The position numbers and the translations under genes are program-made. DNA of 64,000 nucleotides from Dehalococcoidia bacterium (GTDB lineage: Bacteria; Chloroflexota; Dehalococcoidia; DSTF01; JACRBR01): contig JBBRPY010000005.1 of assembly GCA_038227375.1 (NCBI GenBank), positions 457 to 64,456 on the forward strand, written 5' to 3'. Below are positions 8,198 to 47,420 of this stretch, piece by piece. The first letter of the stretch is position 1. Each line of letters opens with the position of its first letter. The notes beneath the pieces were generated by a model, which worked only from the letters and a program-made list of their open reading frames with translations, ran no database searches and had not been told where the DNA came from.

Positions 8198-8206
8198 GCC
8201 GCACCA

Positions 8207-9738: not shown

Positions 9739-9774
9739 TTCCCGTAGCGGTAATGGCGTCCTACACTCCGGGAG

Positions 9775-10275: not shown

Positions 10276-10299
10276 CGTAGCCGGAACGCGATCTACAAT
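10272..10299 (+). promoter_or_regulatory. sigma70-like promoter TTGACG-N16-TACAAT upstream of the sulfurtransferase gene
   Basis: TTGACG at 10272-10277 and TACAAT at 10294-10299. CAGGAGG RBS before the ATG at 10374. Confidence 0.4.
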
Positions 10300-10373
10300 T
10301 GCTCTCGTCCCATCTTATGTTGCCCTCGCCGCTCGGCGGGGCCGCGCATCTCGAACACAGGAGGTTCCCCGCC

Positions 10374-11201: not shown

Positions 11202-11242
11202 CCGCATCGGCCGTCCGGGCGTGGTGCGCCGATCATCGCTGC

Positions 11243-11671: not shown

Positions 11672-11672
11672 G

Positions 11673-12725: not shown

Positions 12726-12762
12726 GGCGCTGCACGGCTGCCGGTGCGTCATAACGAAGCGC

Positions 12763-14424
12763 TTACTGGAACTCCGCGAGCGTGCCTTCGACCTTCGTCG
12801 AGCCGGTGAGACGGAAGAAGTTGAAGTACTTTCCACTCGGGAGCTGTACCCAGACGGCGTCGTACACCTGCCAGAAGTCGGGCTGGGAAAGCAGGGCGGA
12901 ATCGGCAGCGAGCAGCTCGCCGGCGTCGAGGCGGTGCACCCATTCGATGCCGCCTGCCGGCAGCAGGTCGAGCTTGGGATCGATGATGATGATGTCCGGC
13001 GCTTGCGCGATCACGTAGGCGCCGTCCCCCTTGCGGTGTCCTGGCGTGTTGATGGTGTCCGAGAGACGTGGTCCATGCGCGATGTGTTCATCCGTTAGTC
13101 CCAGCGTGTCAAGTGTCCGCGTGCGGGTCACGAAAGGTATGTAACCGGAGGCGCCGACCGCGACATGCGTGCCCGGATCCTGTTGCTTCAGCCATGCCCC
13201 AATCTCCACGTAGGCGTCGGCCTTCGAGCGCCGAAACGCGAGGAGCTCAACTTCTCGCCGCGGCACGACGATCAGCCATGCCACCGCCAGCACGCCGACC
13301 ACTGCTCCCGCCGGCGCCAGCCAACGCGCCGGCTGCTCGCGGCTGAACTGTCCGACCACGAACACGAAGGAATCCACCGCGAGCACTAGCGCGATCGGTA
13401 TGACGGGCAGCATGAACCGGTGGAACGACATGAAGTCGCCGCCGACATACGCGACGTACGCCGTCCAGAGTGCGCCAAATCCGATGAGGGGGAGCGCCCG
13501 CGCGCGGCGGTCGGCACGCGCCAGTGCCACGAGTGGCAGCGGAAAGATAAGGAGCGCGCCGGTCTCGATCCAGAAGGACCGCACGTAGCCCAGGCCGTCG
13601 CGGTAACGCCCCCAATCGAGCAACGGGCCGCCGCCCACCTTCTGGTAGTACGTATTCGGCAGTGGATAGCCATAGTACGACCAGCGCCAGCCAATGTACG
13701 CGGCGTACGGCAGGAACACGATCGCGCACCACACCGCGAGCGCCTGAAAGCGCCGGTTGTCGCGCCAGCGCGCAGCGTCAGCGCCCTTGGCAATGAGCAG
13801 CACGATTACCACGATGAGCCCTTCGGGCCGGGTCAACGCCGCCAGGAGCGCGATCGCGGCCGAGAGCGGCAGCCGTCCCGATTCTTCGGACTCGACCATG
13901 GCACGGTACAGCGCCAGCGCCACCAGGAACGTGAACAACGGCTCCTCTAGTCCAGCCGTCGCCCAGTACCCGGTGGATGGCAGGGCGCCGAATACCAGCG
14001 CCGCCCCCGCGAACACAGCGTCGGCGGTCCGGCGCGATTCCGGGGCCAGACGGCGCGCGAGGAGCCACATGACGGCGAGCGTGCCGAGATCCGACGTGAA
14101 GCCGAGCCATCGCGAAGGCGTGACGATGCCGGCGCCCAGCCGCTCGGTCAGCGCCAGCAGCATCACCCACGAGAAGTTGGTGTAGCCTTCGACGTGCTCG
14201 CCGGGATTGAAGACGAGGCCGGACCCGTGCGCGAAGTTGTAGGCATACCGGTACGAGATGTATGCATCGTCGACGGTGAGGTCCCAGAACTTGAACGCCT
14301 GCGCCGCGATCAACGCGCCAGCCATCACAAACGCAATCGGCGCGGCGAGCCGCCGATTGAGGGTGGCGGCGAAACCTATCGCGCAGCCACCGAGCATGAT
14401 CCAGTACAACTGGTCGAAGGACAT
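12763..14424 (-). CDS. GT-C fold integral membrane glycosyltransferase (ArnT/PMT-like)
   Basis: Start at ATG 14422-14424 (MSFDQLYWIML...). The first periplasmic loop carries the DDAYISYRYAYNF motif, and the protein has >10 TM helices. The ORF track N-terminal extension is junk. Confidence 0.65.
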   Translation of the reverse strand: MSFDQLYWIMLGGCAIGFAATLNRRLAAPIAFVMAGALIAAQAFKFWDLTVDDAYISYRYAYNFAHGSGLVFNPGEHVEGYTNFSWVMLLALTERLGAGIVTPSRWLGFTSDLGTLAVMWLLARRLAPESRRTADAVFAGAALVFGALPSTGYWATAGLEEPLFTFLVALALYRAMVESEESGRLPLSAAIALLAALTRPEGLIVVIVLLIAKGADAARWRDNRRFQALAVWCAIVFLPYAAYIGWRWSYYGYPLPNTYYQKVGGGPLLDWGRYRDGLGYVRSFWIETGALLIFPLPLVALARADRRARALPLIGFGALWTAYVAYVGGDFMSFHRFMLPVIPIALVLAVDSFVFVVGQFSREQPARWLAPAGAVVGVLAVAWLIVVPRREVELLAFRRSKADAYVEIGAWLKQQDPGTHVAVGASGYIPFVTRTRTLDTLGLTDEHIAHGPRLSDTINTPGHRKGDGAYVIAQAPDIIIIDPKLDLLPAGGIEWVHRLDAGELLAADSALLSQPDFWQVYDAVWVQLPSGKYFNFFRLTGSTKVEGTLAEFQ

Positions 14425-14617
14425 CCCGGCGCACCTCAGTTGAGAGCATACATGCCGCCATCCGCGCACCTTTCCACACACCGTTGCCAGGTGGCGAGTC
14501 ACGCGTTGGCAAGCAGCCAGCCCGTCGCCGTGCCTCGCGGCTGAGCTTGCCAGGCACTGCCCTCCGCACGGATTGGTCATTCCGAATGACGCAACCGTGA
14601 TGCCGTTATGATGCGTC

Positions 14618-16360
14618 ATGACACGCAGGTGGATCCTTGTCTCCGGCGTCGCGCTCCTCGCTCTCGCCAGCCTCGTGGGCGCGGGCGTCGCCGTGGGGCG
14701 CAAGACCGCGCACTCGCGGAGCATCGTGTCCGCACCAGATGCGACGCCGGAAACGAGCAGCGTGCGATTCTCTCCGAATCGCAACCTGCCAGGCAGGTTG
14801 GTGCTGACGCGGACGGACTGCAGCGGTGACGACACCTCGGTCGGGTGGTTCAGTTGGACGCGGGAACCCGGCACGGAGGAGCAGCCGTATCACATCGCGA
14901 TCACGCCGTGGGACGGACTCTGGTATCTCTCCTTTCGCGACGCCGTCGAAGGCAAGGCGCGTCTCGGCGGATTCGCGACAGGCAAGGCCTACACCATCAC
15001 GGTGACGGCGCCCGGCTCTGGGAACGTCTGGGCCGCTGGCGATCTGTCTGCGGCTTCTTGCCGTGACTACTCCGGACGCTGTCCTCCGTCCGCGGATCTG
15101 ATGGCGCAGGGGCCGGTGACGGGAGCCGTTTCCGATACGACGGCCCGCATCTGGGTCCGCACCTGCTACTCCGCGGACGTCGTGATCGAGTACAAGGCGG
15201 CGTCGTCACCCTGGTCGGCGTCCTCGCGCACGGCGCCGAAGCCGGTGGATGAAACGCGAGACAACACGCTGGTCGAAGAGCTGCGCGATTTGAGTCCGCT
15301 GACGGAGTATGACTACCGAGTCCTCGTAGAGGGCATCGCGCCCGATCAGCCACCGGGCCACTTCGCGACGCTACCCCACCCCGGGACGCCTTCGAAGTTC
15401 CGATTTCTCTCTACCGCAGACACGCATCAGATACGGGTGCAGAACCGGCCGGACATCGCGGCGGCTCTGTTTTCGAGCATGGCCGCGCAACGAGCGCAGT
15501 TCCAGTTGTTGATCGGCGACAATATCGACGTCGATGGCTACGGCTCGTTCGATCCCACCAGCGCCGAGGCGTACCGGCGGCACTATCGTGACAATTGGTC
15601 GTTTCCGGCGTTGCGCGGCCTGATGGCAGGCGCCGCCACGTTCGAAATGTGGGACGACCACGACATCATGAACGACTGGGCGCAGAAGCAGGAGCCCCCG
15701 TACGGCTTCGCCCGACAGGCGTACGAAGACTTCATCAACTCCCGGAATCCGGCGCCGCTTGAGCCGGGGTCGACGTACTACAGCTTCGACGCCGGCGATG
15801 GCTCATTCTTTGTGTTGGACGACCGCTCGTTCCGCGACGCGAAGACGCTGGCGGATGATGCGAACAAGACAATGCTTGGTCAGACCCAGAAAGAGCACCT
15901 CAAGAAGTGGCTGAAGACATCAACCGCGCAATTCAAGTTCATCGTTTCGACGGTGCCCTGGAACGACCACCAGGTGCTCCCGCTGAAACAATATGATGGA
16001 TGGGACGGTTTCCGCACGGAGCGACAGGAGATCTTCGACTACGTCCACCAGAACCATGTCGGCGGTGTGATGTTGATCTCGGCCGACAACCATTGGCCGA
16101 TGGTGACGCGGCAGGCGTACGGCATCCCGGAGTTCCAGACGACGCCCGCTGTGGTCACGCCCGGCACCGCCCCCACGTCCGGATCGAGTTCCGTCGTCGG
16201 CGCACCGGACGTGCTGTTCTATGACAGCTCGAAGAATGCATACGGCGAGTTCGACATCGACACGACGGTAACCCCGGCGCAGATGAACTTTCGGATGATG
16301 GACGAGACCGGCTCGGCGATGTTCTCGCTATCGCTGACGGCAGGCGATCTCGCGCAGTGA
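14618..16360 (+). CDS. phoD: alkaline phosphatase D family protein (PhoD-like), Tat-type signal
   Basis: 580 aa. RR-containing signal peptide (MTRRWILVSGVALLALASLVGAG). PhoD-like metallophosphatase core (FLSTADTH...GDNIDVD...WDDHDI...ISADNHW). Confidence 0.85.
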   Translation: MTRRWILVSGVALLALASLVGAGVAVGRKTAHSRSIVSAPDATPETSSVRFSPNRNLPGRLVLTRTDCSGDDTSVGWFSWTREPGTEEQPYHIAITPWDGLWYLSFRDAVEGKARLGGFATGKAYTITVTAPGSGNVWAAGDLSAASCRDYSGRCPPSADLMAQGPVTGAVSDTTARIWVRTCYSADVVIEYKAASSPWSASSRTAPKPVDETRDNTLVEELRDLSPLTEYDYRVLVEGIAPDQPPGHFATLPHPGTPSKFRFLSTADTHQIRVQNRPDIAAALFSSMAAQRAQFQLLIGDNIDVDGYGSFDPTSAEAYRRHYRDNWSFPALRGLMAGAATFEMWDDHDIMNDWAQKQEPPYGFARQAYEDFINSRNPAPLEPGSTYYSFDAGDGSFFVLDDRSFRDAKTLADDANKTMLGQTQKEHLKKWLKTSTAQFKFIVSTVPWNDHQVLPLKQYDGWDGFRTERQEIFDYVHQNHVGGVMLISADNHWPMVTRQAYGIPEFQTTPAVVTPGTAPTSGSSSVVGAPDVLFYDSSKNAYGEFDIDTTVTPAQMNFRMMDETGSAMFSLSLTAGDLAQ

Positions 16361-28016: not shown

Positions 28017-28568
28017 CTATGCGCCCCCCGTCGGGGCGTCCAGCCAGCCGGCCATGCACTCCATGACGACGAAGGCGTTGCCGCCGCGGCGCGAGCGGCC
28101 GCAGACGCGGAATCCCGCCTTCTCGAACGAGCGTTGGGCGCGCACGTTCCAGTCAAGCGTCTTCAGGTAGATCCGGCGGAATCCGGTGGAACGGAAGATG
28201 TGGCGGACGAGCGTCTGCACGCTGTCCTTCCCGTAGCCCCTGCTCCAGCAGTCGCGCTCGCCGATCGTGATGCCGATCTCCGCCTCGCGCCGCACCGTAT
28301 CGATGTTGTAGTACATCGCGTTGCCGATATGCCGGCCTCCGGTGTCCTCGATCGCGAGGCTGCGGCGGTACGGGCTCGGGTACGCGAGCTCGTCGCGATA
28401 CAGCGACACGTAGTCGCTGTAGGTGGCGGCGAACGGGCGGGCGGCGTCATAGCGCGCGAGCTCGGCGTCGGTGCGCCAGCGAAAGTCGTCGCCCGCGTCG
28501 TCCAGCCGCTTCTCGCGCAGGATCACGAGCTCGCCCCGCGCGACCTCTCCTTCGATCGTCGTCGTCAC
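28017..28568 (-). CDS. GNAT family N-acetyltransferase
   Basis: RRGYGKDSV... acetyl-CoA binding motif. 183 aa. Confidence 0.8.
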   Translation of the reverse strand: MTTTIEGEVARGELVILREKRLDDAGDDFRWRTDAELARYDAARPFAATYSDYVSLYRDELAYPSPYRRSLAIEDTGGRHIGNAMYYNIDTVRREAEIGITIGERDCWSRGYGKDSVQTLVRHIFRSTGFRRIYLKTLDWNVRAQRSFEKAGFRVCGRSRRGGNAFVVMECMAGWLDAPTGGA

Positions 28569-29023
28569 GATGGTTCTTCCTCGATCACCTCGATCGCACG
28601 GCGGACGATCTGGACTTCATTGCGGTGCGTCATGATGCGCAACGCCTCTTCCGCGGGAAACCACTCGACCCGATCGTACTCGGCATCGTGCTCGCTGACA
28701 CTACCGCTTCCCGTCGGCCGCATCAGGTAGTGGTACACGGTCTTCTCGAAGCGCACGCCCTGCGCCGGCCGCGCGAAGCCATACTCGATGGTGCCGAGGT
28801 CGCCGACGATGGCGACGCCAAGTCCGGTCTCCTCGCTCACTTCCCGAAGCGCCGTCTGTTCGATCGATTCGTCGAGTTTGGGTGTGCCCTTCGGTAGCGC
28901 CCAGAGCCGCTCCGGCACACGCCCGCAGAGCACGATCTCGATCCCGTGCTCGCCTGCGCGGTAGACGACGCCGCCCGCTGAGACTGCCTGCTCCACACGC
29001 AAGTCGTAATTTCCCGTCGTCAC
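28565..29023 (-). CDS. NUDIX hydrolase
   Basis: Nudix box GTPKLDESIEQTALREVSEETG. Overlaps the GNAT gene by 4 nt. Confidence 0.8.
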   Translation of the reverse strand: MTTGNYDLRVEQAVSAGGVVYRAGEHGIEIVLCGRVPERLWALPKGTPKLDESIEQTALREVSEETGLGVAIVGDLGTIEYGFARPAQGVRFEKTVYHYLMRPTGSGSVSEHDAEYDRVEWFPAEEALRIMTHRNEVQIVRRAIEVIEEEPS

Positions 29024-29985
29024 GCGCCATCGTCCTCATCAGCATCATCGGCAACACTCTGGTCGAGGCGCATCTTGAAGCCGAGCGGATCTTCGACGAA
29101 GTCGGCCTCGCTCAGCGCCTCGCTCACAGCCTCAAGCACGCGCTCGTCGGAGTGCTCGGATGCCACCGTATGCAACGCCGCGCGCGCTTCCGGCCCGCCG
29201 ATCAGGCCCAGAGCCGCGATCGCCGCCTGTTGCACTTCGGCATCGTCATCGTCTACGAGCGCAACCAGGTGCGGGATCGCCTGCTCGTCGCCGATGCCGC
29301 CGGCCGCGGTCGCCGCCTCGAAGCGCATCTCGCCGTCGTCGCTCAGCATCTCATCGACGATCGCCGGGAGCCAGTCCGGGTCGGCGCTACGGCCCATCGC
29401 GTGGACGGCGCTGATGCGCAGCCGGCGGTCGCCGCTCGCGTACGCCTCGTCGATCAGGTCGTGCACCCAATCGACGGCGCGGACCCCCAGCGCCTCCAGC
29501 GCGCGGCCGCGCACCTCCACCAGCTCGGATTCATCGTTGACGACCGAACGCAGCGCCGTCTCCGTTTCGGTATGGATGCCCGCCCCCTCCGCGTTCAGCT
29601 CGGCGCGAAGAAGGTACCGGCCGAGACCCAGCGCCGCCTCGGCCCGCACGATCGCTTCGGGGTCGTGGAGGAGGCGCAAGAGCACGGCGATCAGGTCGTA
29701 CCGTTCGTACTCCCACAGCGCCTTGATCGACTGTGCCCGCACCTGCACATCGTCGTCCAGCAGCCCGATCTTGAACACGGTGTCGAAATTCAGCTCGACG
29801 TTATCTTCTGCCAGGTCGGGAAGGACGTCGACGACGTCCCGCCGGCGCTGGATGCTGAGCGCGCGCCAGACGTCGAGGAATCGCGCGCGGTCATCGCCGG
29901 CGAGTCCGCTCAGCGCGACAAGATCGGTCGCCGGCGGCGGGTGCTCGGCGTGTTCGAGCTGGGGAAGTAGTGTTTCGAGAGACAT
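29020..29985 (-). CDS. HEAT-repeat (PBS lyase-like) domain protein
   Basis: Repeated ...VRAEAALGLG / ...VRGRALEALG / ...VQQAAIAALG units. Start taken at MSLETLL. Confidence 0.7.
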   Translation of the reverse strand: MSLETLLPQLEHAEHPPPATDLVALSGLAGDDRARFLDVWRALSIQRRRDVVDVLPDLAEDNVELNFDTVFKIGLLDDDVQVRAQSIKALWEYERYDLIAVLLRLLHDPEAIVRAEAALGLGRYLLRAELNAEGAGIHTETETALRSVVNDESELVEVRGRALEALGVRAVDWVHDLIDEAYASGDRRLRISAVHAMGRSADPDWLPAIVDEMLSDDGEMRFEAATAAGGIGDEQAIPHLVALVDDDDAEVQQAAIAALGLIGGPEARAALHTVASEHSDERVLEAVSEALSEADFVEDPLGFKMRLDQSVADDADEDDGA

Positions 29986-30070
29986 GAGCGCTCCTGTCGC
30001 CGGAGGCGACTCCGGCGGCAAATGCGGGGCGCCGAGCATCCGCGAGCCGCTGCGTGCGTGCTCCTTCAGT

Positions 30071-30877
30071 CTAGGGACGGCGTTCGGAGGCTGTCAAACT
30101 CGTCTCGTCGGAATCGGCCGAAGCTGGCATCGTGACGCGCTCGCGCTCCGGCGCTGCCGCGCTCTCCGATGACGACGCCACGTGCCGGGATCGCGCCACG
30201 CGCACCCGCAAGATCGCCCGCAGCACGGACCAGCCGGCGCCGGGGCCGAGCTTCTTCCCGTCATCGGCGCCGCGCGGCCGGTACGTCACAGGCACTTCGA
30301 GGATGTGATGGCCGTCGCGCAGCAGCCGGCAGGTGATCTCGGCATCGAAATCAAATCCGTTGCATCGCAGGTCGAGTGTGCGGGCGACGTCGGCGTGCAA
30401 CACCTTGTAGCACGTCAGCAGGTCGGTGAGATGCGTCAGGAAGAGGATGTTCGCCGCCCAGGTAAGCAGGAAGTTTCCCGCGTAGCCGACGAGCGGTGTG
30501 GCGCCGCGCCCGCGTCCGCGAAACCGCGAGCCGAAGACGACATCGGTGCGGCCTTCGACGATGGGCGCCAGCAGCGACGGTATTTCCGACGGATCCAGCT
30601 CCAGGTCGGCGTCCTGCACCATCACGATCGTCCCGCTCGCGCGCTTGAAACCCGTGCGCACGGCGCGGCCCTTGCCCCGCGCGGCGTCCTCGAGCACCAG
30701 CACGAGGTCGTCGCTGGGCGGAAGGGCTTGCAGCGCCTCGCGCGTGCCGTCGGTCGACGCGCCGTCGACGACGATGATCTCCTTCGGCATGCCGCAGTCG
30801 ACGGCGCGCACACTTTCGATCAGCGCGATCACGGTGGCGCGCTCATTGCGGACGGGGATGACGATCGAGACCTTCAT
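30071..30877 (-). CDS. GT2 family glycosyltransferase (polyprenyl-phosphate sugar synthase, Dpm1/ArnC-like)
   Basis: MKVSIVIPVRNE...VVDGASTDGT...VQDADLE (DxD). Start at ATG 30875-30877, overlapping the upstream stop (ATGA). Confidence 0.8.
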   Translation of the reverse strand: MKVSIVIPVRNERATVIALIESVRAVDCGMPKEIIVVDGASTDGTREALQALPPSDDLVLVLEDAARGKGRAVRTGFKRASGTIVMVQDADLELDPSEIPSLLAPIVEGRTDVVFGSRFRGRGRGATPLVGYAGNFLLTWAANILFLTHLTDLLTCYKVLHADVARTLDLRCNGFDFDAEITCRLLRDGHHILEVPVTYRPRGADDGKKLGPGAGWSVLRAILRVRVARSRHVASSSESAAAPERERVTMPASADSDETSLTASERRP

Positions 30878-31578
30878 GCGTGCCGCTCCGCCAACATCCG
30901 CGCGGCGTCTTCGAGCTGGTCGATGCGGTCGATCGCCAGCCACGCGTCGTCGAAGTGATACGACCCGACGCCACGGCCGGCAGCCAGCAGCGCGTTCACC
31001 AGGTCGGGGATGTCGAAGAAGCTGTTGTACGGCACGAGGTCCAGCGCCGACGGCTGGATCGCGTAGATGCCCGCGCTCACCAGGTCCGTCTCCACCGGCT
31101 TCTCGACGATGCCGGTGATCCGCTGGCCCTCGGTCTGGATGACGCCGTATGGATGCTGAAGCTGAAACTCGCGCGTCGCGACGCTGATCTCGAACGCGCC
31201 GGTGCGGTGAAAGTCCAACAGAGCAGCGACATCAAGATCGGTGAGAATATCGCCGTTCATCGCCAGCAGCGGCTCGCCCGGCGGCAGGTCGCCCGCCACC
31301 CGCACAAGGGAGAGCGGGCCCGCCGTTCCCAGCGCGTGGGACTCGCGCACGTATTCGATGCTGACGCCGAGCTGCGTCCCGTCGCGAAAGTACGTCTCGA
31401 TCAGCTCGGCCCGATAGCCGACAGCGATGATGAATTCGCGGACCCCGAAGCCCTTGAGCCGCTCGATAATTTCTTCGAGGATCGGCTTCTCGCCGACGGG
31501 GAGCAGCGGTTTGGGGATCGTGTACGTCAGCGGCCGCAGCCGCACACCCTTGCCTCCGGCGAGGATCACCGCTTTCAT
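30874..31578 (-). CDS. sugar-phosphate nucleotidyltransferase
   Basis: MKAVILAGGKGVRLRPLTYTIPKPLLPV is the NTP-transferase signature. Start at ATG 31576-31578. Confidence 0.8.
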   Translation of the reverse strand: MKAVILAGGKGVRLRPLTYTIPKPLLPVGEKPILEEIIERLKGFGVREFIIAVGYRAELIETYFRDGTQLGVSIEYVRESHALGTAGPLSLVRVAGDLPPGEPLLAMNGDILTDLDVAALLDFHRTGAFEISVATREFQLQHPYGVIQTEGQRITGIVEKPVETDLVSAGIYAIQPSALDLVPYNSFFDIPDLVNALLAAGRGVGSYHFDDAWLAIDRIDQLEDAARMLAERHA

Positions 31579-32567
31579 ACGGCGTATTCCTTCGGGCGGT
31601 ACAGGTCCTGGTGCTCGCGGATCCAGTCGACGGTCAGCCGCAGCCCTTCGTCGAGCGAGACCTCCGGCCGCCACGCCGCCAGCCGCTGTGCTTTTCCGCT
31701 GTCCGACAAGAGGCGCGACACTTCGCTCTTCGCGGGGCGCATCCGCTGCTCGTCGCCCTCGACCTCAAGCTTCGCCCCCGTGATTGCGGCCACCTTGTCC
31801 ACCACCTCGCGGATGCTGACCTCGGCGCCGGAGCCGAGGTTGACCACCTCGCCCAGCGCGTCATCGGCAGCGCCGACCGCGGCGAACCCGCGTGCCGTAT
31901 CAGCGACGAAGGTGAAATCGCGTGTTGTGTCGAGCGCGCCCAGCCGCAGCGTCTGTCCCGCCACGGCCTGGCTGATGATCGTTGGGATGACGGCGCGCGC
32001 GGACTGGCGCGGACCGTACGCATTGAACGGCCGCACGATGCTGATCGGCAGCCCGAACGAGCGGTGGAAGCTGAGGCCCAGCGCATCGCCGGCGATCTTC
32101 GTCGCCGAGTAGGGGGACTGCGCCTGCAGCGGGTGCTCTTCGTCCATCGGCACGCGCAGCGCCGAGCCGTACACCTCGCTCGTCGAGGTCAGCACGATGC
32201 GCTCCACCGTCCCGAGTTCCTTCGCCGCCAGCAGGACGTTCGACGTGCCGACGACGTTGGTGTCGATTACCTCCTGCGGATGCTCATACGAGTACGGGAT
32301 GCCGACGAGCGCGGCGAGATGAAAGATCGCGTCGGCGCCGCGGGCGATCTCGCGCACGGCGTCGAAATCGCGGACGTCGCCCATCGTGATGTCGACGCTG
32401 TCGAGCAGCGCCGGCGGCAGCAGCTCCAGGCAGCCGTGCTGACCGCGCGAAGTGTAGCGCAGCATCGCCCGCACGTGCGCGCCGGAAGTTACGAGATGCT
32501 CGACCATGTGGCTGCCGATGAAGCCGCCCGCTCCTGTGACGACGACGGTTTTACCTTCGAATCGCAC
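31575..32567 (-). CDS. NAD-dependent epimerase/dehydratase (SDR extended family)
   Basis: VVVTGAGGFIGSH Rossmann motif with YxxxK (YSATK). GTG start at 32565-32567 chosen from the homology. Confidence 0.75.
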   Translation of the reverse strand: MRFEGKTVVVTGAGGFIGSHMVEHLVTSGAHVRAMLRYTSRGQHGCLELLPPALLDSVDITMGDVRDFDAVREIARGADAIFHLAALVGIPYSYEHPQEVIDTNVVGTSNVLLAAKELGTVERIVLTSTSEVYGSALRVPMDEEHPLQAQSPYSATKIAGDALGLSFHRSFGLPISIVRPFNAYGPRQSARAVIPTIISQAVAGQTLRLGALDTTRDFTFVADTARGFAAVGAADDALGEVVNLGSGAEVSIREVVDKVAAITGAKLEVEGDEQRMRPAKSEVSRLLSDSGKAQRLAAWRPEVSLDEGLRLTVDWIREHQDLYRPKEYAV

Positions 32568-32775
32568 GGAGCCCCCAGCCCACGATCCGGACCACCAGCC
32601 CGGCGCCCGCAATCAGCGCCAGTATGACGCAAACCAGCGCCCACATATAGAGCGTGATGATCAGCGCGAAGCTGAATGGCACGCCGGCGGTCAACTCGAC
32701 GAGAAGCGCGACGAGCGGCGACGCGAGCAGGAGCAAGCCTGCCACGCGGAACCAGTGGCTAGCGATCGGGTTCAC
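32551..32775 (-). CDS. small membrane protein (74 aa, 2 TM), translationally coupled between the GT-C and epimerase genes
   Basis: GTG at 32773-32775 overlaps the TGA of the upstream GT-C (GTGA). Its stop overlaps the epimerase start. VNPIASHWFRVAGLLLLASPLVALLVELTAGVPFSFALIITLYMWALVCVILALIAGAGLVV. Confidence 0.45.
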   Translation of the reverse strand: MNPIASHWFRVAGLLLLASPLVALLVELTAGVPFSFALIITLYMWALVCVILALIAGAGLVVRIVGWGLRAIRR

Positions 32776-34169
32776 GGCGCAGGCGTGCCGTACGTCCGCA
32801 GGATGCTTCCCAACGACCGGCCGCCGCTGATCGACCGGAAGTTGTCCGCCGTGATGCGCCCGATCGCCGCGAGCGCCGGGGCGGCGAAGATGACGATGGG
32901 GAAGTACAGCGCGTAGTGATAGCGCGGATCCCCGATGAAGAGGACGCCGAAGACGATCATGTAGAACGGCACGATGCCAAACACCGCCCACTTGCGCGTA
33001 TCCCGTGTCTTCCACCAGAGCGGCCACGACGCCAGCGCCAGCGCGATCAGTCCGTAGAACACCGCGCTCGAGAACTTGATCAGCCGGTCCGCGCCATCCG
33101 GTCCGAACCAGGGGCGGTTGCCCTGCACCCACGTGACGCCGCTCTCGTCGCTGCGGAAAAGCCGGTACATGCGCTTCGGGATGAGCCGCAACTCCTCGAG
33201 CTTGTGGTCCATCGCCCACTCGCGCGCCTGCTTCGCGCCGTCGCGGTTCGCCTTCAGCTCAATCTCCTTCAGGCTCAAGCCCTTGTAGTGCTCCTCAAGC
33301 CGGTAGAACGCCTCCAGGCTCGGCCCGCCGTCCGTGAGGTCGTTGTGGCCCTGGAACATCACCCGCCCCGAGCCCGTGGTCCCGACAATCGTCTCACCAA
33401 GCTGGATGCGGTTCCGCACGGTCCACGGCGTGACCACCAGCGCCGCGCCCGCCGCCAGCGCGAGCAGGGGCAGGATCGCCCGCAGGCGGAGGTGGAAGAT
33501 CAACAGGACGGCAAGAAAGCCGCCGTAGGCGAGAAACTCGCCGCGCACGTAGCCGGCAAACGCCGTCAGCGCGCCGAGCGCGAAGATGATCAGCAGGTTC
33601 GGCCGGCTGCGGCCGAAGACAAAGTAGACGGACACCGCCAGCAGCAGCGTCAATAGAAACCCAAAGTACGTCTCCGAGAGCAGCACAGTCGTGAAGAGTG
33701 CGTGCCCCGGAAGAAACGCCAGCGTGAATCCGGCGATGACGCCTGCGGCCGGATCGAAGAGCTTGCGGGCGATCAGGTACACCAGCGCCGCTGTCAGCGC
33801 GCCAAAGAGCGCGTTCAGCAGACGCCCCGCCAGGATCGAATTCCCCGTCAGCTTGTAGACCGCGGCCAGCGTAAGCGAATATCCGGGCGGCCAGAGCGCC
33901 GTCGGCGTCAGCGCATCGTCATTCGGGTAGATGCGGTCGCCGGTTGCCGTCTTCCACACCGTCGGGTCGAAGACGTAGCCGTCGCCGGCGGCCAGATGCC
34001 GCGCCGTGGTGTCGTACCAGACCGAGTCATCGTAGCGTCCGTCGCGGGGGTTGGGGTGCACCGATGACACGATGAACAACCGCAGGCCGAGCGCGACGAC
34101 GAAGACCACCAGCGCCCAACGGAACGCGTGTTGCCGCGTCCAGCTCAGGTCAGGACGCATGGAGGCCAT
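32772..34169 (-). CDS. GT-C family membrane glycosyltransferase (ArnT/PMT-like), paralogue 1
   Basis: 465 aa. Multi-TM, with an RxxDxxWY periplasmic loop and a C-terminal IGDPRYHY motif shared by the paralogues. Confidence 0.75.
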   Translation of the reverse strand: MASMRPDLSWTRQHAFRWALVVFVVALGLRLFIVSSVHPNPRDGRYDDSVWYDTTARHLAAGDGYVFDPTVWKTATGDRIYPNDDALTPTALWPPGYSLTLAAVYKLTGNSILAGRLLNALFGALTAALVYLIARKLFDPAAGVIAGFTLAFLPGHALFTTVLLSETYFGFLLTLLLAVSVYFVFGRSRPNLLIIFALGALTAFAGYVRGEFLAYGGFLAVLLIFHLRLRAILPLLALAAGAALVVTPWTVRNRIQLGETIVGTTGSGRVMFQGHNDLTDGGPSLEAFYRLEEHYKGLSLKEIELKANRDGAKQAREWAMDHKLEELRLIPKRMYRLFRSDESGVTWVQGNRPWFGPDGADRLIKFSSAVFYGLIALALASWPLWWKTRDTRKWAVFGIVPFYMIVFGVLFIGDPRYHYALYFPIVIFAAPALAAIGRITADNFRSISGGRSLGSILRTYGTPAP

Positions 34170-35526
34170 CCATCGACGGCAGGTGGCGATGCCGGCGGTC
34201 CCAGATCATCACCATCGTCGCAGCGGCGACAAAGACGGCGAGCGGTATCGCCGGATAGTGGAACCGCGGGTCGCCGAAGAACACGAGCGGGATCGCGAGC
34301 ACGTAGAGCATCGCCACCATGGCGATCAGGCGGCGAATGTCGGCGCCGAACACGAAGGCGAGGCCGCCGACGATCACGAGCGCCGCTGTCGCGTAGTAGA
34401 CGGAATTTGCAGCGAAGGCCAGCACCTCGCGCCGGAAGAGCGGCATGAAATAGTCGTTCCCGTAGGATTCCGCCGCCCAGAGGCCGTCGTCATCCTTATA
34501 GAGCAGCCAGTACGCCTTCTTCGGTATCAGGCTCGCCATCCGGAAGGGGTGGGTGACGACGTCGTGGACGGCGATGCGGACGCCTTCGCGGTTGCGCTGG
34601 ACTTCGACTTGATCCGGTGTCTTTCCTTCGTACCCCTCGAAGCACTTGCCCTGCACCGTGAACGCGCCCTGCGCGCCGAGATAGTTGCCGATGCAGAGAT
34701 CGTCGCCGACGTTAGTCGACGGCCCGAGAACCTCACCGAAGGTGATGCTGTTGCGGACCGACCACGGCACCACGAGCACGGCGATGCCCGCCCAGACGAT
34801 CAACGCCTGCAGCAGCGCCCGTTTTTTCGAATGCAGGAAGAAGAGCCAGACGGCGAGCAGCAGCAGCGGGAACATCAGCGTGATGCCGCGCGTCAGCGAC
34901 GCCGCGCTCAGCAGCAGGCCGGCGCCGAAGAGTTGCTGCCACGGCATGCCGTCGCGTTTCCACGGATTCCACAGCAGGACGACTAGCGCCGATATCCAGA
35001 GCAGCGTGAAGAGCGGCTCTGAGAGGACGGTGCCGGTGTAGTACACCTGGCTCGGGAAGATCGACAGGAGCAGTCCGGCGACAATGCCGACGCGGCGGTC
35101 GAAGATGCGGCTGGCGACTAAGAACAGCAGCACGACCGTGATCGCGCCGAACATGCCGTTCATCATCTTGATCGAGAAGATGCTGCGTTCCCAGCCGAAG
35201 ATGTCGCCGGCCTTCTTGAGTGCGGCGACGGTCGCCGGAAATCCGATCGGGTAGTAGGCGAACGTCTCCCCCGTCGGCCGCACGTAGCCGTGGCCGTCCG
35301 CGATCGTGTCGCCGAAGAGGTTGTACAGCGTCGGGTCGTTCAAGCCCTGCGGCGCGCGGTCGGCGTAGGCGACCCACGCCGCTCGCGGGATGATGGCGAG
35401 CGTGAAGAGGAAGATCGAGAGGAGCAGGTCGACGCGGATGGCCGCGAACCACGACGCGCGAGAGGCAACGCGCTCCACCTGCTGCTGACGCTCCATGCGG
35501 ACGGCTGCGGGGGTTTCGGCGCTCAC
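34150..35526 (-). CDS. GT-C family membrane glycosyltransferase, paralogue 2
   Basis: 458 aa. C-terminal FGDPRFHYP. Overlaps both neighbours, consistent with translational coupling. Confidence 0.75.
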   Translation of the reverse strand: MSAETPAAVRMERQQQVERVASRASWFAAIRVDLLLSIFLFTLAIIPRAAWVAYADRAPQGLNDPTLYNLFGDTIADGHGYVRPTGETFAYYPIGFPATVAALKKAGDIFGWERSIFSIKMMNGMFGAITVVLLFLVASRIFDRRVGIVAGLLLSIFPSQVYYTGTVLSEPLFTLLWISALVVLLWNPWKRDGMPWQQLFGAGLLLSAASLTRGITLMFPLLLLAVWLFFLHSKKRALLQALIVWAGIAVLVVPWSVRNSITFGEVLGPSTNVGDDLCIGNYLGAQGAFTVQGKCFEGYEGKTPDQVEVQRNREGVRIAVHDVVTHPFRMASLIPKKAYWLLYKDDDGLWAAESYGNDYFMPLFRREVLAFAANSVYYATAALVIVGGLAFVFGADIRRLIAMVAMLYVLAIPLVFFGDPRFHYPAIPLAVFVAAATMVMIWDRRHRHLPSMDGLHAS

Positions 35527-36827
35527 GCCGGCGCGTACCTCCCGTCGAGGCTCGGTTGAGGCCGCCGGACCGCTTCGAAGAGCACCACCAGCCCCCGCGC
35601 TCCGAGCAGCGCGATCGCGAAGACGATCGGGTAATGGAACCGGGGATCTCCGAAGAAGAGCAGGTGCGTGGCCGTCCAGAGCAACACGAGGGCCGGCAGC
35701 ACGGCGACGACGTCGTTCAGGCGCATCCTGCTGGCCAGCAGCCCGATGCCCGCCAGCGCGATGGCGGCGAACCAGAATCCGTTCGCCGCGGCGCGCAGCC
35801 AGTCGACGGTCGTCTGTGAAGCGTAGAAATCGTCGTGGTAGCCGGAGTTCCAGTCGAGCGCCGTCGCGTCTGACTCGTACATCGCCCGCACCTTGCTGAG
35901 GGCCAGCGTGAACTCGCGCGCGGGATGATGGCGCATATAGGTGAGCCCCGTCCTGAGCGCGAGATTATCTGCCTTCACTTCGAACTCCGGCTGCGAGATG
36001 TTAGCGCGTGATGGCTGCGGCGCTTCGGGTTCGGGGATGCCTCGGCGGCCGGTGGCCGTGTCGTGATTCCCGATCCAGACGTTCACGCCGAAGTTCGTCG
36101 CCACGAGGACCGGACTGCCGAGCTTGTGCTGATTGCGTGCCACCCACGGCGCCATCATCACAGCGACGACGAACGCGGCCAGCATAACCCAGGCGATCGC
36201 GGGTCGCCAACGATATCCGGCGAGCACCCAGACTACGAGCGCCAGCGGCAGCAGCACGAGCGCCTGCCCACGCGTCAGCGTCGCGAGCGCGGTGACGACG
36301 CCAAACGCCAGCACGATCCCGCCCCGGCCGGACGATACCCGCGTAGCCAGCAGCATCAGCAGCAACGCCAATGAGAACAAGAATGTGAACAGTGGCTCGG
36401 ACAGCGTCAGCGAGGTGAAGTACACCTGGCCGGGCCAGACCGCCATCGCCGCAGCGCCAATCAGCGCGGTAGGGCGGTCGAAGAGGATCAGTCCGATGCA
36501 GTAAATGATCGGGATCGTCGCGGCTGCGAGCACGGCGTTCGTGATGTAGGTCTGGGCGAGCCCCTCGCCGAAGTACTGGAAGACGTGGCCGAGAAAGACC
36601 GGATACCCCGGCGGCCATCCCGCGGTGGAGGTACCTGTGAACGGATTCACGTACCCGTCGCCGTTAGCGAAGAAGTGGGCCGACACCCGGTACCAGACGG
36701 TGTCGTCGAAACGCCCGTCCGTCGGGTCGGGATGGATGAAGGCGATCCAGGCGAGCCGGACAGCGAGGGCGGTGAGGAGAATCAGGCCGAGAGCGGGCAG
36801 GTGCCTTCGGAGCTGATTCATCGTCAA
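35523..36827 (-). CDS. GT-C family membrane glycosyltransferase, paralogue 3
   Basis: 434 aa. DDTVWY loop and C-terminal FGDPRFHYP. Confidence 0.75.
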   Translation of the reverse strand: MTMNQLRRHLPALGLILLTALAVRLAWIAFIHPDPTDGRFDDTVWYRVSAHFFANGDGYVNPFTGTSTAGWPPGYPVFLGHVFQYFGEGLAQTYITNAVLAAATIPIIYCIGLILFDRPTALIGAAAMAVWPGQVYFTSLTLSEPLFTFLFSLALLLMLLATRVSSGRGGIVLAFGVVTALATLTRGQALVLLPLALVVWVLAGYRWRPAIAWVMLAAFVVAVMMAPWVARNQHKLGSPVLVATNFGVNVWIGNHDTATGRRGIPEPEAPQPSRANISQPEFEVKADNLALRTGLTYMRHHPAREFTLALSKVRAMYESDATALDWNSGYHDDFYASQTTVDWLRAAANGFWFAAIALAGIGLLASRMRLNDVVAVLPALVLLWTATHLLFFGDPRFHYPIVFAIALLGARGLVVLFEAVRRPQPSLDGRYAPA

Positions 36828-36834
36828 ACGGAGT

Positions 36835-38343
36835 TCATTCCTGTTGTCCCGCCCGCTGCGCCACCATCGCCGGCGTCACCGGCTGCAGATGGCCGTCCTC
36901 TAATTGCACAAGATACACGTTCCCGCTGAGGTTCTGCGAGAGCCGCTCGAAGTCCGCTGAGGAGAGCGCCCGCACGGAAACGCCCTTCCCATAGAGGGCG
37001 TGCCCCACCGACGTCAGCCATGTCGGCTGCCAGTACAAGTTCGACCAGAGCCCCTCATCGTCGACGACGTAGATCGTCGTGCCTTCGGGCGCGGCATCGT
37101 AGTTCGCCCGTAGATCGGTCGTGAGCAAGCGCCAGCGCTCCGTATCCTTCATGAACGGCTGGGTCTGATGGATCGTTTGCCACGAGTACAGGCCCGCGAC
37201 CGCGATCAGTGCCGCCGCTGCGAGCGCGTGCGCTCCCGGCTTCCAGAGGCGGACGGCGTGGTGGTGGACGAAGCCGGCGGCGACGGCGACGAGGATGGCG
37301 AAGAAGGGCAGCGACATGTAGGTGTAGCGCGTGGCGGTCCAGATCTTCCCCGGCGCGTAGGGCGCCACGCCGATCAGCATGCCGACCGCGGCGAACCGCG
37401 CGATGTGCGGCCCGCGGACGAAGAAGAAGATCGCGAACGCGACGACTACCGACCCCCACGCCCACTCCATCGCCCCCGGGTTCTTCTGGATGGCGCCGAC
37501 GGGGTAGGCGAGGCGCGCCATGTACACCCAGGTCTCTCTCGGGATGTGCCAGCCGACGCCGTAGAATCCGGCATCGACGCCCTGGCAGCCACAGCCACTG
37601 AGCCCCCCCACCAGCAGCGTCGCCGCGAGGCCGAACGGCAGCATCTTCATCACGAAGTCCAGCGGGTCGCGCCGCCGGACCAGCGACGCCGTCGCGTAGT
37701 AGACGAGGATCGCCGCGCCCAGCACGACGCCGCCTTCGTTCGCCAGGAAGCCCGCCACGAACAACAGGAACGACCCCCAGTACCAGGCGGCTCGTCGCTC
37801 GCCGCCCGCGACGTACTGGTGCAGCGCGAAGAGCGACGAGATCAGCAGGAATTCGCTGAAGACGTGCGGAAATGCGGTGATGTAGGTCACCGTGTGCACG
37901 GCCGATGCCGAGACCGCGAACACGGCGGCGGCGACGAGCGCGACGAAGAGGCGCTTCGTCATCGAAAGCACGAGCATGTACAGCACGGCGACGGTGGCCA
38001 CGTGCAGGGTGAGGTTCACAATGCGCCACGGCAGCGCGTTGAAGCCGAAGGTCTTGAATTCGGCCCAGTACACCAGCATCGTCAGCGGGCGCCAGTTGGG
38101 TGTGAGGTCCCGGAGCAGGAAGACGTCGCGCATGTACGCAGGAAACGCCCTCGACTGAATGTCGCCGAGCACGAGGAAGTCATCGCCGAAGAAGTAGTAC
38201 TTCATCGTCGGGATATGGATGCCGATGACGAGGGCAACGATGGCGAGGAAGGGGAGGTGCCGCGCAAGGCGGCGGAGGGCATCGGTCAGCGCGGCGCTGC
38301 GCGGCCGTTCGAACGCAGAGGCGTGCGTGGCTATGACGGCCAT
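36835..38343 (-). CDS. polytopic membrane protein, probable GT-C-like glycosyltransferase
   Basis: 502 aa with >10 TM helices, FFGDDFLVLGD in the first loop and a C-terminal soluble domain. First gene of the minus-strand operon. Confidence 0.55.
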   Translation of the reverse strand: MAVIATHASAFERPRSAALTDALRRLARHLPFLAIVALVIGIHIPTMKYYFFGDDFLVLGDIQSRAFPAYMRDVFLLRDLTPNWRPLTMLVYWAEFKTFGFNALPWRIVNLTLHVATVAVLYMLVLSMTKRLFVALVAAAVFAVSASAVHTVTYITAFPHVFSEFLLISSLFALHQYVAGGERRAAWYWGSFLLFVAGFLANEGGVVLGAAILVYYATASLVRRRDPLDFVMKMLPFGLAATLLVGGLSGCGCQGVDAGFYGVGWHIPRETWVYMARLAYPVGAIQKNPGAMEWAWGSVVVAFAIFFFVRGPHIARFAAVGMLIGVAPYAPGKIWTATRYTYMSLPFFAILVAVAAGFVHHHAVRLWKPGAHALAAAALIAVAGLYSWQTIHQTQPFMKDTERWRLLTTDLRANYDAAPEGTTIYVVDDEGLWSNLYWQPTWLTSVGHALYGKGVSVRALSSADFERLSQNLSGNVYLVQLEDGHLQPVTPAMVAQRAGQQE

Positions 38344-39075
38344 TCAGGTGTGCGCTCCGTCGGTGATGGGTCCGGTATCTGGGACAGCTTCTCGTTTTTG
38401 CGATCGTAGCATCGGCCGTGCAACCCGGCAATAGAGGGCGCGGTCTCCGCCGCGCGGCTTGTAAAGGGCCTTTGCCTGTTTAGGAGCTGCCCGGTTCTAG
38501 TTTGGTTCGCCACCTCAGGACCAAGAGCGAGGTCAGGACAAGCGCGACGATCGAGCCATAATGCGATCGTTGAAACGATGACTGATTCAATCAGTACAGC
38601 AACCTACAGAAACCAACGGCTACCGCGACCAGGCCCAGATCACCAGACTGTCAGATGGCGCGGAGACGCTAACCCGCCGAGGATTGCGTTCGGAGCTCGT
38701 CTAGGGCTTCGAGCCATCTTGATGCAGTCTCCCGACTAGTCCAAAGAAAAATCCCCCGACTCAACCGAAATGTGTAGACGGTGTTAGAGTGTTTCACTCG
38801 AATCCCAGCTGCCAGGCCAGCGCTGAAGCGCTCGACGCTCTCTATCTCTGCGATCGCCATTCTGACCATTGGAATCTTCCCGACACCGAGCGGCAGACCG
38901 AGGGGCCCATGTTGGGGTACCCACACAAGTGGTGAGCGGTCAACATGAGCCGACGCCAGCCGACCGCTAAGCGGCCAGACTCCCAGCAGGTTGCCACACT
39001 GTTCAGCATCACCGTCTCTTCGGCCTCACGATTCACCGCAAATACCTCAAGGGAAAGCCACGACGCTGGTCGACG

Positions 39076-40413
39076 CTACGGTGGCGCCTTGTGCTCTTGC
39101 AGCGGAGCGAGCGGGTCTTGCGGGCGGCCGAATCGGCGGCCGCCGCGGCGCGGTTCGCCTTCGACGAGGCCTAGAAATATCGCCAGCGGCCGCGCGACGA
39201 GGAGCGTCAGCGGCATGTACAGCACGCCGATCCAGAGCACCTGCCAGCCGTTTGCCGCGCCCTCCAGACGGATCGTATGCGTGATCTGGCGAAAGGGTTC
39301 GTTCACGATCAGCACGGTGTACGAAATGACGCCCACCCAGGCGAACATCCGTCCGGGCGTGCTGACCTCCAACTTCCCCGGGATCTTCATCACGAGCGGC
39401 AGGAAGATCAGGCACATGCCGAGCGCGTGCAGCGGCTCCTGGAAGGTGATCGGGCCGCCGCTATCGGGTTCGATCATGCTGCCGGCGATGAAGAGGAGCA
39501 GTCCGAGGACGACGATCGAGACGATGTCAAGCGGCGCGCGCGTGTACTCGATGAGGAGCTGCGGCTTCGTCACCATCAGGTAGCCGCCGACCATGCCAAG
39601 CCCGAACTCGAAGATGCGGAACGGCGCGAGCGTCTCCACCCAGCTCGTCGCGGGGATCAGACTGCCGTCGAAGGCGACGATGATGTTCAGCGAGACCATC
39701 GTGATGAGGAATGTGAGCGCCAGGAAGAACCAGGGGCCGATGCGCTTGAGCAGCGGCAGCAGGAGAGGGAAGAGGAGATAGTACTGGAGGATCAGCAGCA
39801 CGAACCAGAGCGACCCTTCCGGAGCGAACTGCCAGCCGTTCTTCCAGAACCGCGGGATCAGCGTGAGGCCGACGAGCAACTGATTCTTGTTGAGCACGAC
39901 GTCGCCGTTCTGGAGGAACCAACCGTAGTCATGCCCGCCATGGCGCTGCCACTGCACCAGCGCGAGCACGGCCGCGAAGGCGAGGGTGTAGAGGAAGCCG
40001 AACCAGTACGGGATCATCACCCGCCGCAGACGCCGGTAGAGGAAGCGAGGCGTCGAAGCGAATGTCGTCTGTCGCTGCATGGCGACAAGCGTCAGCGAGA
40101 GGCCGCTGAGGATCATGAAGAGGGGCACGCCGAGGTAGCCGACGCGCAGAAGGGCATCGAATGCGGCAGTTGCGGCATTCCACGCTTGCCCGCCGGTGAT
40201 CTCGTGCGGCACCGCCCGGAACTGGCTCGAGACCGGCTTCACGTCCAGGAACTTGATATCGGTCCAGAGGTGGTACAGCACGACCCAGAGGATCGCAAAG
40301 CCGCGGAGCATATCAACCGCGACGATGCGCCCGCTATCCGGCACGAGCCGGGCGTTCTCGAGCGCAGCGTCGTTGTCGCCGCTCGCTGCCATGTTTCTAC
40401 GTTTGGCCGCCAA
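39076..40413 (-). CDS. acyltransferase family 3 (OafA/YrhL-like) membrane protein
   Basis: VDMLRGFAILWVVLYH signature and ~10 TM helices. Confidence 0.8.
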   Translation of the reverse strand: MAAKRRNMAASGDNDAALENARLVPDSGRIVAVDMLRGFAILWVVLYHLWTDIKFLDVKPVSSQFRAVPHEITGGQAWNAATAAFDALLRVGYLGVPLFMILSGLSLTLVAMQRQTTFASTPRFLYRRLRRVMIPYWFGFLYTLAFAAVLALVQWQRHGGHDYGWFLQNGDVVLNKNQLLVGLTLIPRFWKNGWQFAPEGSLWFVLLILQYYLLFPLLLPLLKRIGPWFFLALTFLITMVSLNIIVAFDGSLIPATSWVETLAPFRIFEFGLGMVGGYLMVTKPQLLIEYTRAPLDIVSIVVLGLLLFIAGSMIEPDSGGPITFQEPLHALGMCLIFLPLVMKIPGKLEVSTPGRMFAWVGVISYTVLIVNEPFRQITHTIRLEGAANGWQVLWIGVLYMPLTLLVARPLAIFLGLVEGEPRRGGRRFGRPQDPLAPLQEHKAPP

Positions 40414-47334: not shown

Positions 47335-47420
47335 GCCGGGGTGGCGGAATTGGTATACGCAGCGGACTTAAAATCCGCCGGCCGCAAGGCATTGTGGGTT
47401 CGAGCCCCACCCCCGGTACC
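47335..47420 (+). tRNA. tRNA-Leu (anticodon TAA), class II with a long variable arm
   Basis: Acceptor GCCGGGG/CCCCGGT. Anticodon stem-loop GCGGA-CTTAAAA-TCCGC. 15-nt variable arm. T-arm GTGGG-TTCGAGC-CCCAC. Discriminator A and an encoded CCA. Confidence 0.85.

Follow-up and report, generated by a model that had tools for sequence, protein, structure and literature searches.

A conserved eight-gene operon of Dehalococcoidia with four GT-C glycosyltransferases and a predicted lipid-linked sugar donor

What would an operon that encodes four membrane glycosyltransferases of the GT-C class, a set of cytoplasmic sugar enzymes and one tiny membrane protein do for a bacterium of the Dehalococcoidia? 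The question is raised by a stretch of 64,000 nucleotides from such a bacterium (assembly GCA_038227375.1, contig JBBRPY010000005.1, positions 457 to 64,456 of the forward strand), referred to here as the window; coordinates are positions in it unless another locus is named. For the soil Dehalococcoidia, which are abundant, aerobic and uncultured, we know of no experimental work on envelope glycans, and a literature search brought up no account of this cluster from any of the Chloroflexota. An earlier note on the same DNA had described an envelope glycosylation locus in which a nucleoside diphosphate (NDP)-sugar is made, loaded on to a lipid carrier and used by tandem GT-C paralogues. The genes form a conserved eight-gene operon on the minus strand, from 38343 down to 30071, in the order D502, GTC_C, GTC_B, GTC_A, S74, SDR, nucleotidyltransferase and GT2. 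We consider it probable, at roughly 0.7, that this operon glycosylates targets outside the cytoplasmic membrane by means of a lipid-linked monosaccharide donor that feeds the four GT-C enzymes.

The operon, its limits and its conservation

Translation, together with scans against Pfam and NCBIfam, recovered every gene in the position and order given by the earlier note. D502 (36835–38343, minus strand, as are all the genes of the operon) comes first and encodes a GT-C-fold protein without a family match in Pfam or NCBIfam. It is followed by GTC_C (35523–36827), GTC_B (34150–35526) and GTC_A (32772–34169), which match the Pfam family PMT_2 (PF13231) with 34.9, 37.5 and 39.3 bits, respectively, and then by S74 (32551–32775), the gene of a 74-residue, two-helix membrane protein of an orphan family. 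The remaining three genes encode an extended short-chain dehydrogenase/reductase (SDR) of 330 residues, counted from a GTG start (31575–32567; Epimerase and GDP_Man_Dehyd in Pfam), a sugar-1-phosphate nucleotidyltransferase of 234 residues (30874–31578; NTP_transferase, PF00483, E 1.2e-36) and, last in the operon, a GT2 glycosyltransferase of 268 residues (30071–30877; Glycos_transf_2, PF00535, E 1.7e-28).

Overlaps of 4–20 nucleotides, and coupling of the 74-residue gene through a GTGA, had been claimed for this locus, and both can be read from the sequence at the junctions. GTGA stop/start overlaps join GTC_C to GTC_B and GTC_A to S74; S74 and SDR overlap by 17 nucleotides; and an ATGA is found both between SDR and the nucleotidyltransferase gene and between the latter and GT2. 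The overlap of GTC_B with GTC_A is 20 nucleotides, or 11 if GTC_A starts at its fourth codon as in public gene calls. D502 and GTC_C do not overlap, being separated by a gap of 7–13 nucleotides.

A synteny scan in which each GTDB species was represented by a single genome yielded 40 loci, all from metagenome-assembled genomes of Dehalococcoidia or other Chloroflexota. The order from D502 to GT2, with a HEAT-repeat gene after it, is kept in approximately 25–30 species at 50–85% protein identity, and each GT-C paralogue has its own orthologue in the syntenic loci. The junctions are conserved as well. The GTC_C/GTC_B overlap is 4 nucleotides in 24 of 24 loci, that of GTC_A with S74 is 4 nucleotides in 23 of 24, and that of S74 with SDR is 17 nucleotides in all 20; overlaps of 4 nucleotides are also found for SDR and the nucleotidyltransferase gene (18 of 22) and for the latter and GT2 (14 of 21). 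Because the whole order recurs in some 25–30 other species, overlaps included, the arrangement is far beyond chance.

The limits of the operon are marked by conserved promoter-like blocks at both ends, which is why we take it to run from D502 to GT2. The upstream block (38403–38466, minus strand) became apparent when 160 nucleotides upstream of D502 were aligned from 25 orthologous loci, in all of which it is present and invariant; a generic promoter scan had missed it. It comprises a CTTTACA box (38466–38460), a –35 element TTGCCG (38431–38426) and, after a spacer of 17 nucleotides, an extended –10 element TGcTACGAT (38411–38403), and it is a sigma-70-type promoter-like site with an extended –10, approximately 55 nucleotides before the start codon. 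The CTTTACA box lies approximately 26 nucleotides from the following TATTGC, which is too great a distance for it to act as another –35 element; a regulator may bind there. At the other end, a promoter-like TTGACA-N18-TAGACT (30068–30097, minus strand) precedes the HEAT-repeat gene; the same motif occurs in 18 of 23 loci, amongst them one from which GT2 has been deleted (L026). A HEAT-repeat protein, a NUDIX hydrolase and a GNAT acetyltransferase (28017–30039, minus strand), whose genes overlap by 4 nucleotides, are always encoded downstream. We weighed whether these genes belong to the operon and decided against it, since the HEAT-repeat gene has its own conserved promoter.

Departures from the standard arrangement are of two kinds. 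In L009 the SDR gene has been lost; in L027 SDR and most of the nucleotidyltransferase gene have been lost and GT2 is frameshifted; and in L026 all three genes are gone. The genes for the four GT-C proteins and S74 are intact in each, and the three loci present a stepwise erosion of the sugar-activation module at approximately 11300–12700. The other kind of departure affects the junction of GTC_B and GTC_A. L012 carries an ArsR-like regulator and SRPBCC-type genes there (6056–10001), and in L017, L030 and L038, where approximately 750 nucleotides separate the two genes, a toxin–antitoxin-like small pair is found at the same place, as judged in both cases from sequence only.

More distantly related Dehalococcoidia clusters combine a helix-less GT2 and a DUF2304 protein with A-, B- and D502-like GT-C proteins. 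The sister clusters L035, L036 and L041 (approximately 9800–16200) encode a GT-C protein, a methyltransferase, a helix-less GT2, a GacJ-like DUF2304 protein and D502-like and B-like GT-C proteins, and they adjoin RodA/FtsW-like and PBP-like genes. In L033 (10324–11409), GT2 and DUF2304 are fused.

The GT-C proteins and the sugar-activation module

The GT-C calls made earlier for the three paralogues have the support of hidden Markov models, as GTC_A, GTC_B and GTC_C all exceed the curated gathering threshold of PF13231 (26.1 bits); D502 has no match to this model. GTC_A has 465 residues (462 from the ATG at 34160), GTC_B 458, and GTC_C 434 from a TTG (432 from the ATG at 36821). Profile searches of GTC_A and D502 against the sequences of the Protein Data Bank found no solved GT-C enzyme, and a comparison of folds was therefore needed; in this, all four proteins match the GT-C fold of solved enzymes. 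Finer classification fails at the level of sequence. The PMT model PF02366 gives 16.9 bits for GTC_A, below its cut-off of 22.7, the ArnT equivalog model gives 20.5 bits for GTC_C against a cut-off of 567, and no sequence-level match to the CAZy families GT39 (PMT) or GT83 (ArnT) was obtained with Pfam or NCBIfam models. On such scores, a specific CAZy family cannot be named for any of the GT-C proteins described here.

D502 is a GT-C-fold glycosyltransferase of a family for which there is no Pfam model. It has 502 residues and approximately 11 transmembrane (TM) helices, its fold is nearest to that of protein O-mannosyltransferases, and no profile-level relationship to GTC_A could be detected. 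Its C-terminal part (approximately residues 400–502) is a tryptophan-rich alpha/beta domain that is absent from the three paralogues and that would lie outside the membrane, to judge by the number of helices in the model. As a speculation, an initiating or acceptor-binding role would fit the PMT-like fold together with this outer domain.

The paralogues are ancient, because their pairwise identity is 29% and because the orthologues of GTC_A, GTC_B and GTC_C (28, 28 and 25 sequences, respectively) each form a monophyletic group in a neighbour-joining tree; A-like and B-like members are found in more distant clusters too. The concern, voiced in the earlier note, that they might be recent duplicates of identical specificity can thus be set aside. 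Each group keeps its own set of 84–124 near-invariant residues, the aspartate of loop 1 included, so that none of the paralogues looks like a dead copy. The most divergent region is the large outer loop, with 18–25% identity amongst the paralogues; that of GTC_B contains the conserved residues Cys278 and Cys295.

Acidic residues in the first outer loop are a hallmark of the GT-C class, and all four proteins appear to have them: D43, D47 and D48 in GTC_A, N63–D64 (in place of a DD motif) in GTC_B, D41–D42 in GTC_C and D54–D55 in D502, each at least 95% conserved in 25–28 orthologues. The orientation of these loops is clearest for GTC_A, in which hydropathy analysis identifies 10 hydrophobic segments and the short loops contain 12 lysines and arginines on the N-terminal side against one on the other, a bias that places the N-terminus in the cytoplasm. 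The loops then facing outwards are those after TM1 (with D43, D47 and D48), a loop of approximately 100 residues after TM7, and the TM9–TM10 loop. Simple hydropathy missed helices in GTC_B, GTC_C and D502 and left their charge bias unclear, so the outer position of the acidic loops is supported by charge for GTC_A, by homology to GTC_A for GTC_B and GTC_C, and by its model for D502.

A C-terminal GDPR(F/Y)HY motif, pointed out previously, is indeed shared by the three paralogues, as GDPRYHY in GTC_A, where it lies in the TM9–TM10 loop, and as GDPRFHY in GTC_B and GTC_C. Its GDPR.HY residues are amongst the 61 positions that are identical in all three, along with the acidic residue of loop 1 and the motifs SE, RG(E) and PW..RN. 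The placement of these invariant residues would be at the outer face, as expected if the enzymes act outside the membrane, and for this reason the motif is a good candidate for part of the site that binds the phosphate of the donor.

The cytoplasmic module begins with the SDR, a putative LegB-like NDP-sugar 4,6-dehydratase or epimerase in which 180 of the 330 residues are at least 95% conserved. Its nearest solved relatives are the dTDP-glucose 4,6-dehydratase DesIV (E 1.2e-41) and then GalE-type epimerases, and it carries STSEVYG where DesIV and the dTDP-glucose dehydratases have STDEVYG. Members of the LegB family (TIGR04180) occur in the context of nonulosonic-acid genes, i.e. NeuABCD-like genes and an aminotransferase. 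The protein does not pass as LegB: it scores 415 bits against a cut-off of 475, and neither Neu-type genes nor an aminotransferase gene were found at the locus. The nucleotidyltransferase is closest, amongst solved enzymes, to UDP-glucose and GDP-mannose pyrophosphorylases (E approximately 1e-33).

GT2 has a DAD motif and no hydrophobic segment that could serve as a TM helix. Its nearest solved relative is the Dol-P-Man synthase of P. furiosus (5mlz; E 1.6e-17 over residues 1–223, with DADL aligned), followed by ArnC (E 1e-11), and its best match in NCBIfam is AglJ (128 bits), ahead of Dol-P-hexose transferase, ArnC and PpgS. These are without exception polyprenyl-phosphate transferases, and in no case is the cut-off reached. 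By homology, it would belong with the polyprenyl-phosphate glycosyltransferases of the DPMS/GtrB/ArnC type.

A predicted pathway and its alternatives

The pathway that we infer, including its donor, its acceptors, its order of action and the chemistry of each step, would run as follows. The nucleotidyltransferase would activate a sugar 1-phosphate to give an NDP-sugar, which the LegB-like SDR would modify by 4,6-dehydration or epimerization. At the inner face of the membrane, GT2, as a helix-less enzyme of the DPMS/ArnC kind, would load the sugar on to polyprenyl phosphate, and a flippase would then carry the lipid-linked sugar across. The four non-redundant GT-C enzymes, with their acidic first outer loops, would then move the sugar to acceptors outside the cell membrane. 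What sets them apart is probably the linkage or the acceptor position, such that one donor would serve to build or decorate an envelope glycan or glycoprotein, with S74 acting as an accessory subunit of the GT-C half and the acyltransferase-3 encoded nearby as an optional addition. This logic of an NDP-sugar, GT2 loading of polyprenyl phosphate and external GT-C enzymes, as the earlier note set it out, fits every homology and fold test applied.

Several observations weigh against it. Pfam-based scans between 28017 and 41063 found no flippase gene of the GtrA, Wzx or ArnE/F kinds, and thus none of a known family in the operon; such a gene might lie in another part of the genome. L026 keeps the GT-C enzymes without local genes for donor synthesis. 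This implies that they can use a donor made elsewhere, which weakens the idea of one operon with one donor. In four species insertions of 0.75–3.9 kb with unrelated genes lie between GTC_B and GTC_A, so tight coupling of these two genes is not essential. The SDR has a serine at the position of the catalytic aspartate of 4,6-dehydratases, which weakens any assignment of its reaction and hence of the sugar. Every NCBIfam match to a named enzyme falls below its cut-off, and all the relatives come from metagenome-assembled genomes.

How the four GT-C enzymes would share the work is the point at which other explanations enter. The stepwise assembly of an oligosaccharide, proposed in the earlier note, is consistent with the data, although parallel action or a hetero-oligomer would fit them equally well. 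In parallel decoration, each GT-C enzyme would have its own acceptor, be it a wall polymer, a lipid or a protein, and all would add the same single sugar. Multi-component systems of this kind are known: Listeria, Bacillus and Lactococcus possess several GT-C enzymes, each for a different polymer (PMC8035078). The divergence of the large outer loop amongst the paralogues would fit different acceptors, as would the extra C-terminal outer domain that only D502 has. However, each GT-C gene in the known cases usually adjoins a GT2 gene of its own, and the fixed order of four GT-C genes, overlaps included, in approximately 25 species looks more like one pathway or complex; we therefore regard parallel decoration as rather doubtful. 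A hetero-oligomer of GT-C enzymes, of the kind formed by Pmt1–Pmt2 or EmbA–EmbB and with S74 as a small structural subunit, would make the paralogues parts of one machine and not enzymes that work independently. It is compatible with the pathway proposed above, although we think it less likely than not; against it, the insertions between GTC_B and GTC_A show that the coupling there can be broken. Less readily accepted is a polymerizing machine, in which the GT-C enzymes and S74, the latter as an obligatory GT-C subunit of a new class or as a minimal flippase, would make an undescribed envelope glycopolymer or lipoglycan of soil Dehalococcoidia from one lipid-linked sugar; we think this unlikely. 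If true, it would be the Chloroflexota counterpart of mycobacterial mannan or arabinan synthesis. It is highly improbable that the enzymes resemble oligosaccharyltransferases or ligases and move a preassembled glycan from polyprenyl diphosphate: the STT3/AglB/PglB model TIGR04154 gives 20–30 bits against a cut-off of 450, no WWDxG motif was seen in the translations of the three paralogues, and these proteins end approximately 20–50 residues past the last TM helix, without a large C-terminal outer domain.

The role of S74 is the other such point. It is a real gene, as shown by its conserved length (74 residues in 28 of 30 loci), its two hydrophobic helices, its conserved motifs MNPLASHW(L/F)R, TLYMW, LVCVILALIA and RA(L/I)RR, and its detection by gene callers. 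Amongst 5.8 billion proteins its family makes up 232 clusters, of which almost all have 74 residues and none has a Pfam domain, and an exhaustive profile search found only 11 representatives amongst 1.84 billion proteins. A 310-residue ‘fusion’ from that search is a mis-call, in which a frameshift lets the reading continue into the SDR gene; no genuine fusion was found. S74 itself has no match in Pfam even at E 10, and alignment of its profile with the DUF2304 proteins of Dehalococcoidia (hhalign) gave a probability of 0.1%. It is kept next to GTC_A in L009, L027 and L026 despite the loss of sugar-activation genes, and it is missing from L028, L029 and L032, which do have this helix-less GT2. 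For these reasons, S74 is most likely an accessory subunit that belongs to the GT-C half of the system. A relationship such as that of Pbn1, the accessory subunit for Gpi14 (PMC12653191), would be the most economical reading.

S74 could alternatively tether the helix-less GT2 to the membrane or activate it, the role of GacJ/DUF2304, Rv3632 and human DPM2/DPM3. The human enzyme DPM1 needs DPM2/DPM3, the GT2 encoded here has no TM helix of its own, and in the sister clusters DUF2304 immediately follows the helix-less GT2 or is fused to it. Precedent is provided by GacJ, which binds and stimulates GacI, and by Rv3632, which stimulates PpgS (10.1101/180810). Yet S74 lacks the homology to PF10066 that characterizes GacJ- and Rv3632-type proteins, two genes separate it from GT2, and each of the two occurs without the other, S74 in L026 and GT2 in L028, L029 and L032, such that this role seems unlikely. 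The suggestion in the earlier note that S74 might be a flippase subunit for the lipid-linked sugar draws on its position, as a conserved integral membrane protein encoded between the GT-C genes and those of the cytoplasmic enzymes, and on the lack of a known-family flippase gene in the operon. It finds no support in the likeness to ArnE/F or GtrA that was looked for. In the small flippases GtrA and ArnE/F each subunit has four helices (approximately 110–130 residues; PF04138, or EamA/SMR-type), whereas S74 has two segments in 74 residues, resembles no Pfam family, and would be without precedent as a two-helix flippase. In Bacillus and Listeria, the gene for the flippase GtcA is elsewhere in the genome (PMC8035078), and the same could hold here. 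A minimal flippase is thus quite improbable, and we return to S74 as a partner of the GT-C enzymes.

Neighbouring genes and comparison with known systems

An acyltransferase-3 gene (39076–40413, minus strand; Acyl_transf_3, PF01757, E 4.6e-28 in Pfam) had been listed as a member of the locus. It is not part of the core, being present in approximately 10 of 30 syntenic loci, always between a flavin reductase gene and D502 and upstream of the conserved operon promoter; as an accessory neighbour, its product is a possible O-acylase of the glycan. The ‘AT-rich island’ described between it and D502 does exist as an intergenic stretch of 732 nucleotides with lower GC content, but the dip is modest (58.5% against 66.4% for the window overall). 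An open reading frame of 85 codons within it (38669–38926) was taken as non-coding, having no match in Pfam and none by tblastn in related loci. Rfam, run over the whole window, found no riboswitch upstream of the operon and a single match, a tRNA (47335–47418, plus strand).

A fifth, stand-alone GT-C protein of 553 residues, reported earlier, is encoded outside the operon (12763–14424, minus strand). The call is borne out by a phmmer match of its residues 34–301 to mycobacterial AftB (9dlf; E 6.4e-7); it also matches the NCBIfam beta-arabinofuranosyltransferase model (E 6.2e-9) and, by hhalign, the profile of GTC_A (E 4.5e-5). An AftB-like enzyme is unexpected in a Dehalococcoidia genome, and its unrelated neighbours (JAB, PhoD and Rho) give no functional clue. 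Further away (5601–10170, minus strand) are genes for a ResB-like cytochrome c biogenesis protein, a thioredoxin-like/AhpC-TSA protein and an M23 peptidase, the last of which suggests that there is peptidoglycan in this lineage.

The general type of system, a GT2 plus a GT-C enzyme, is already known, and as such the locus is a solid annotation and no surprise. What is new is the combination of four GT-C genes in one operon, one of them from an unmodelled family, with NDP-sugar genes of its own and a micro-protein of an orphan family, in a compact and strictly conserved set of eight genes that would hold one donor pathway and four non-redundant GT-C enzymes. Should these use one donor in successive steps, the operon would offer a small bacterial model for the division of linkage specificity amongst GT-C paralogues, which is presently studied in mycobacteria and in the endoplasmic reticulum. 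S74, should it prove indispensable to them, would add to the few accessory subunits known for GT-C enzymes.

By none of the sequence criteria that we tested does the locus belong to the Arn, Gtr, Gac, Emb/Aft or oligosaccharyltransferase families. It differs from the Arn pathway (ArnA/B/C/D/E/F/T) in having no aminotransferase, formyltransferase, deformylase or ArnE/F. Chloroflexota are generally regarded as monoderm and without lipopolysaccharide, and to our knowledge they are not known to make lipid A; the ‘periplasmic’ and ArnT-like, lipid A-type targets named in the earlier note are therefore unsuited to them. The embCAB genes of mycobacteria are likewise a tandem array of three GT-C paralogues. 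In the assembly of mycobacterial lipoglycans and arabinan, as is predicted here, one lipid-linked donor serves several linkage-specific GT-C paralogues (Ppm1 with PimE/MptA–C; DPA with AftA–D) (PMC3485146). The logic of the pathway is also that of ALG3, ALG9 and ALG12 (PMC13503287) and of polyprenyl-phosphomannose-dependent lipoglycan synthesis (PMC3485146). ALG3/ALG9/ALG12 and GPI-MT-I (Gpi14/PIG-M with Pbn1/PIG-X) are, however, eukaryotic and have a lipid-diphosphate glycan or GPI as acceptor, and they share the fold alone with the GT-C proteins of the operon (11–12% identity).

Similar in part is the PpgS–Rv3632–Rv3779 system of Mycobacterium tuberculosis, which places galactosamine on arabinogalactan (10.1101/180810; PMC3485146). 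It too has an NDP-sugar made by an epimerase, a GT2 synthase with a small membrane partner and then a GT-C enzyme, but only one of the latter against four here; moreover, S74 is not a DUF2304 protein, and the PpgS model gives GT2 38.6 bits against a cut-off of 370. Compared with GtrA/B/V, CsbB–GtcA–YfhO and GacI/J/K/L, the locus has four GT-C genes per GT2, its own genes for an NDP-sugar, no flippase of the GtrA or Wzx type, and an orphan 74-residue protein instead of DUF2304. The route that we propose is nevertheless the one that these systems use, in which a GT2 makes a polyprenyl-phosphate monosaccharide for a PMT_2-type GT-C enzyme outside the membrane (PMC8035078). The helix-less GT2 recalls GacI in particular, and the sister clusters with their GacJ-type DUF2304 belong to the documented GacI/GacJ/GacL type of system within the Dehalococcoidia themselves (10.1101/180810; PMC8035078).

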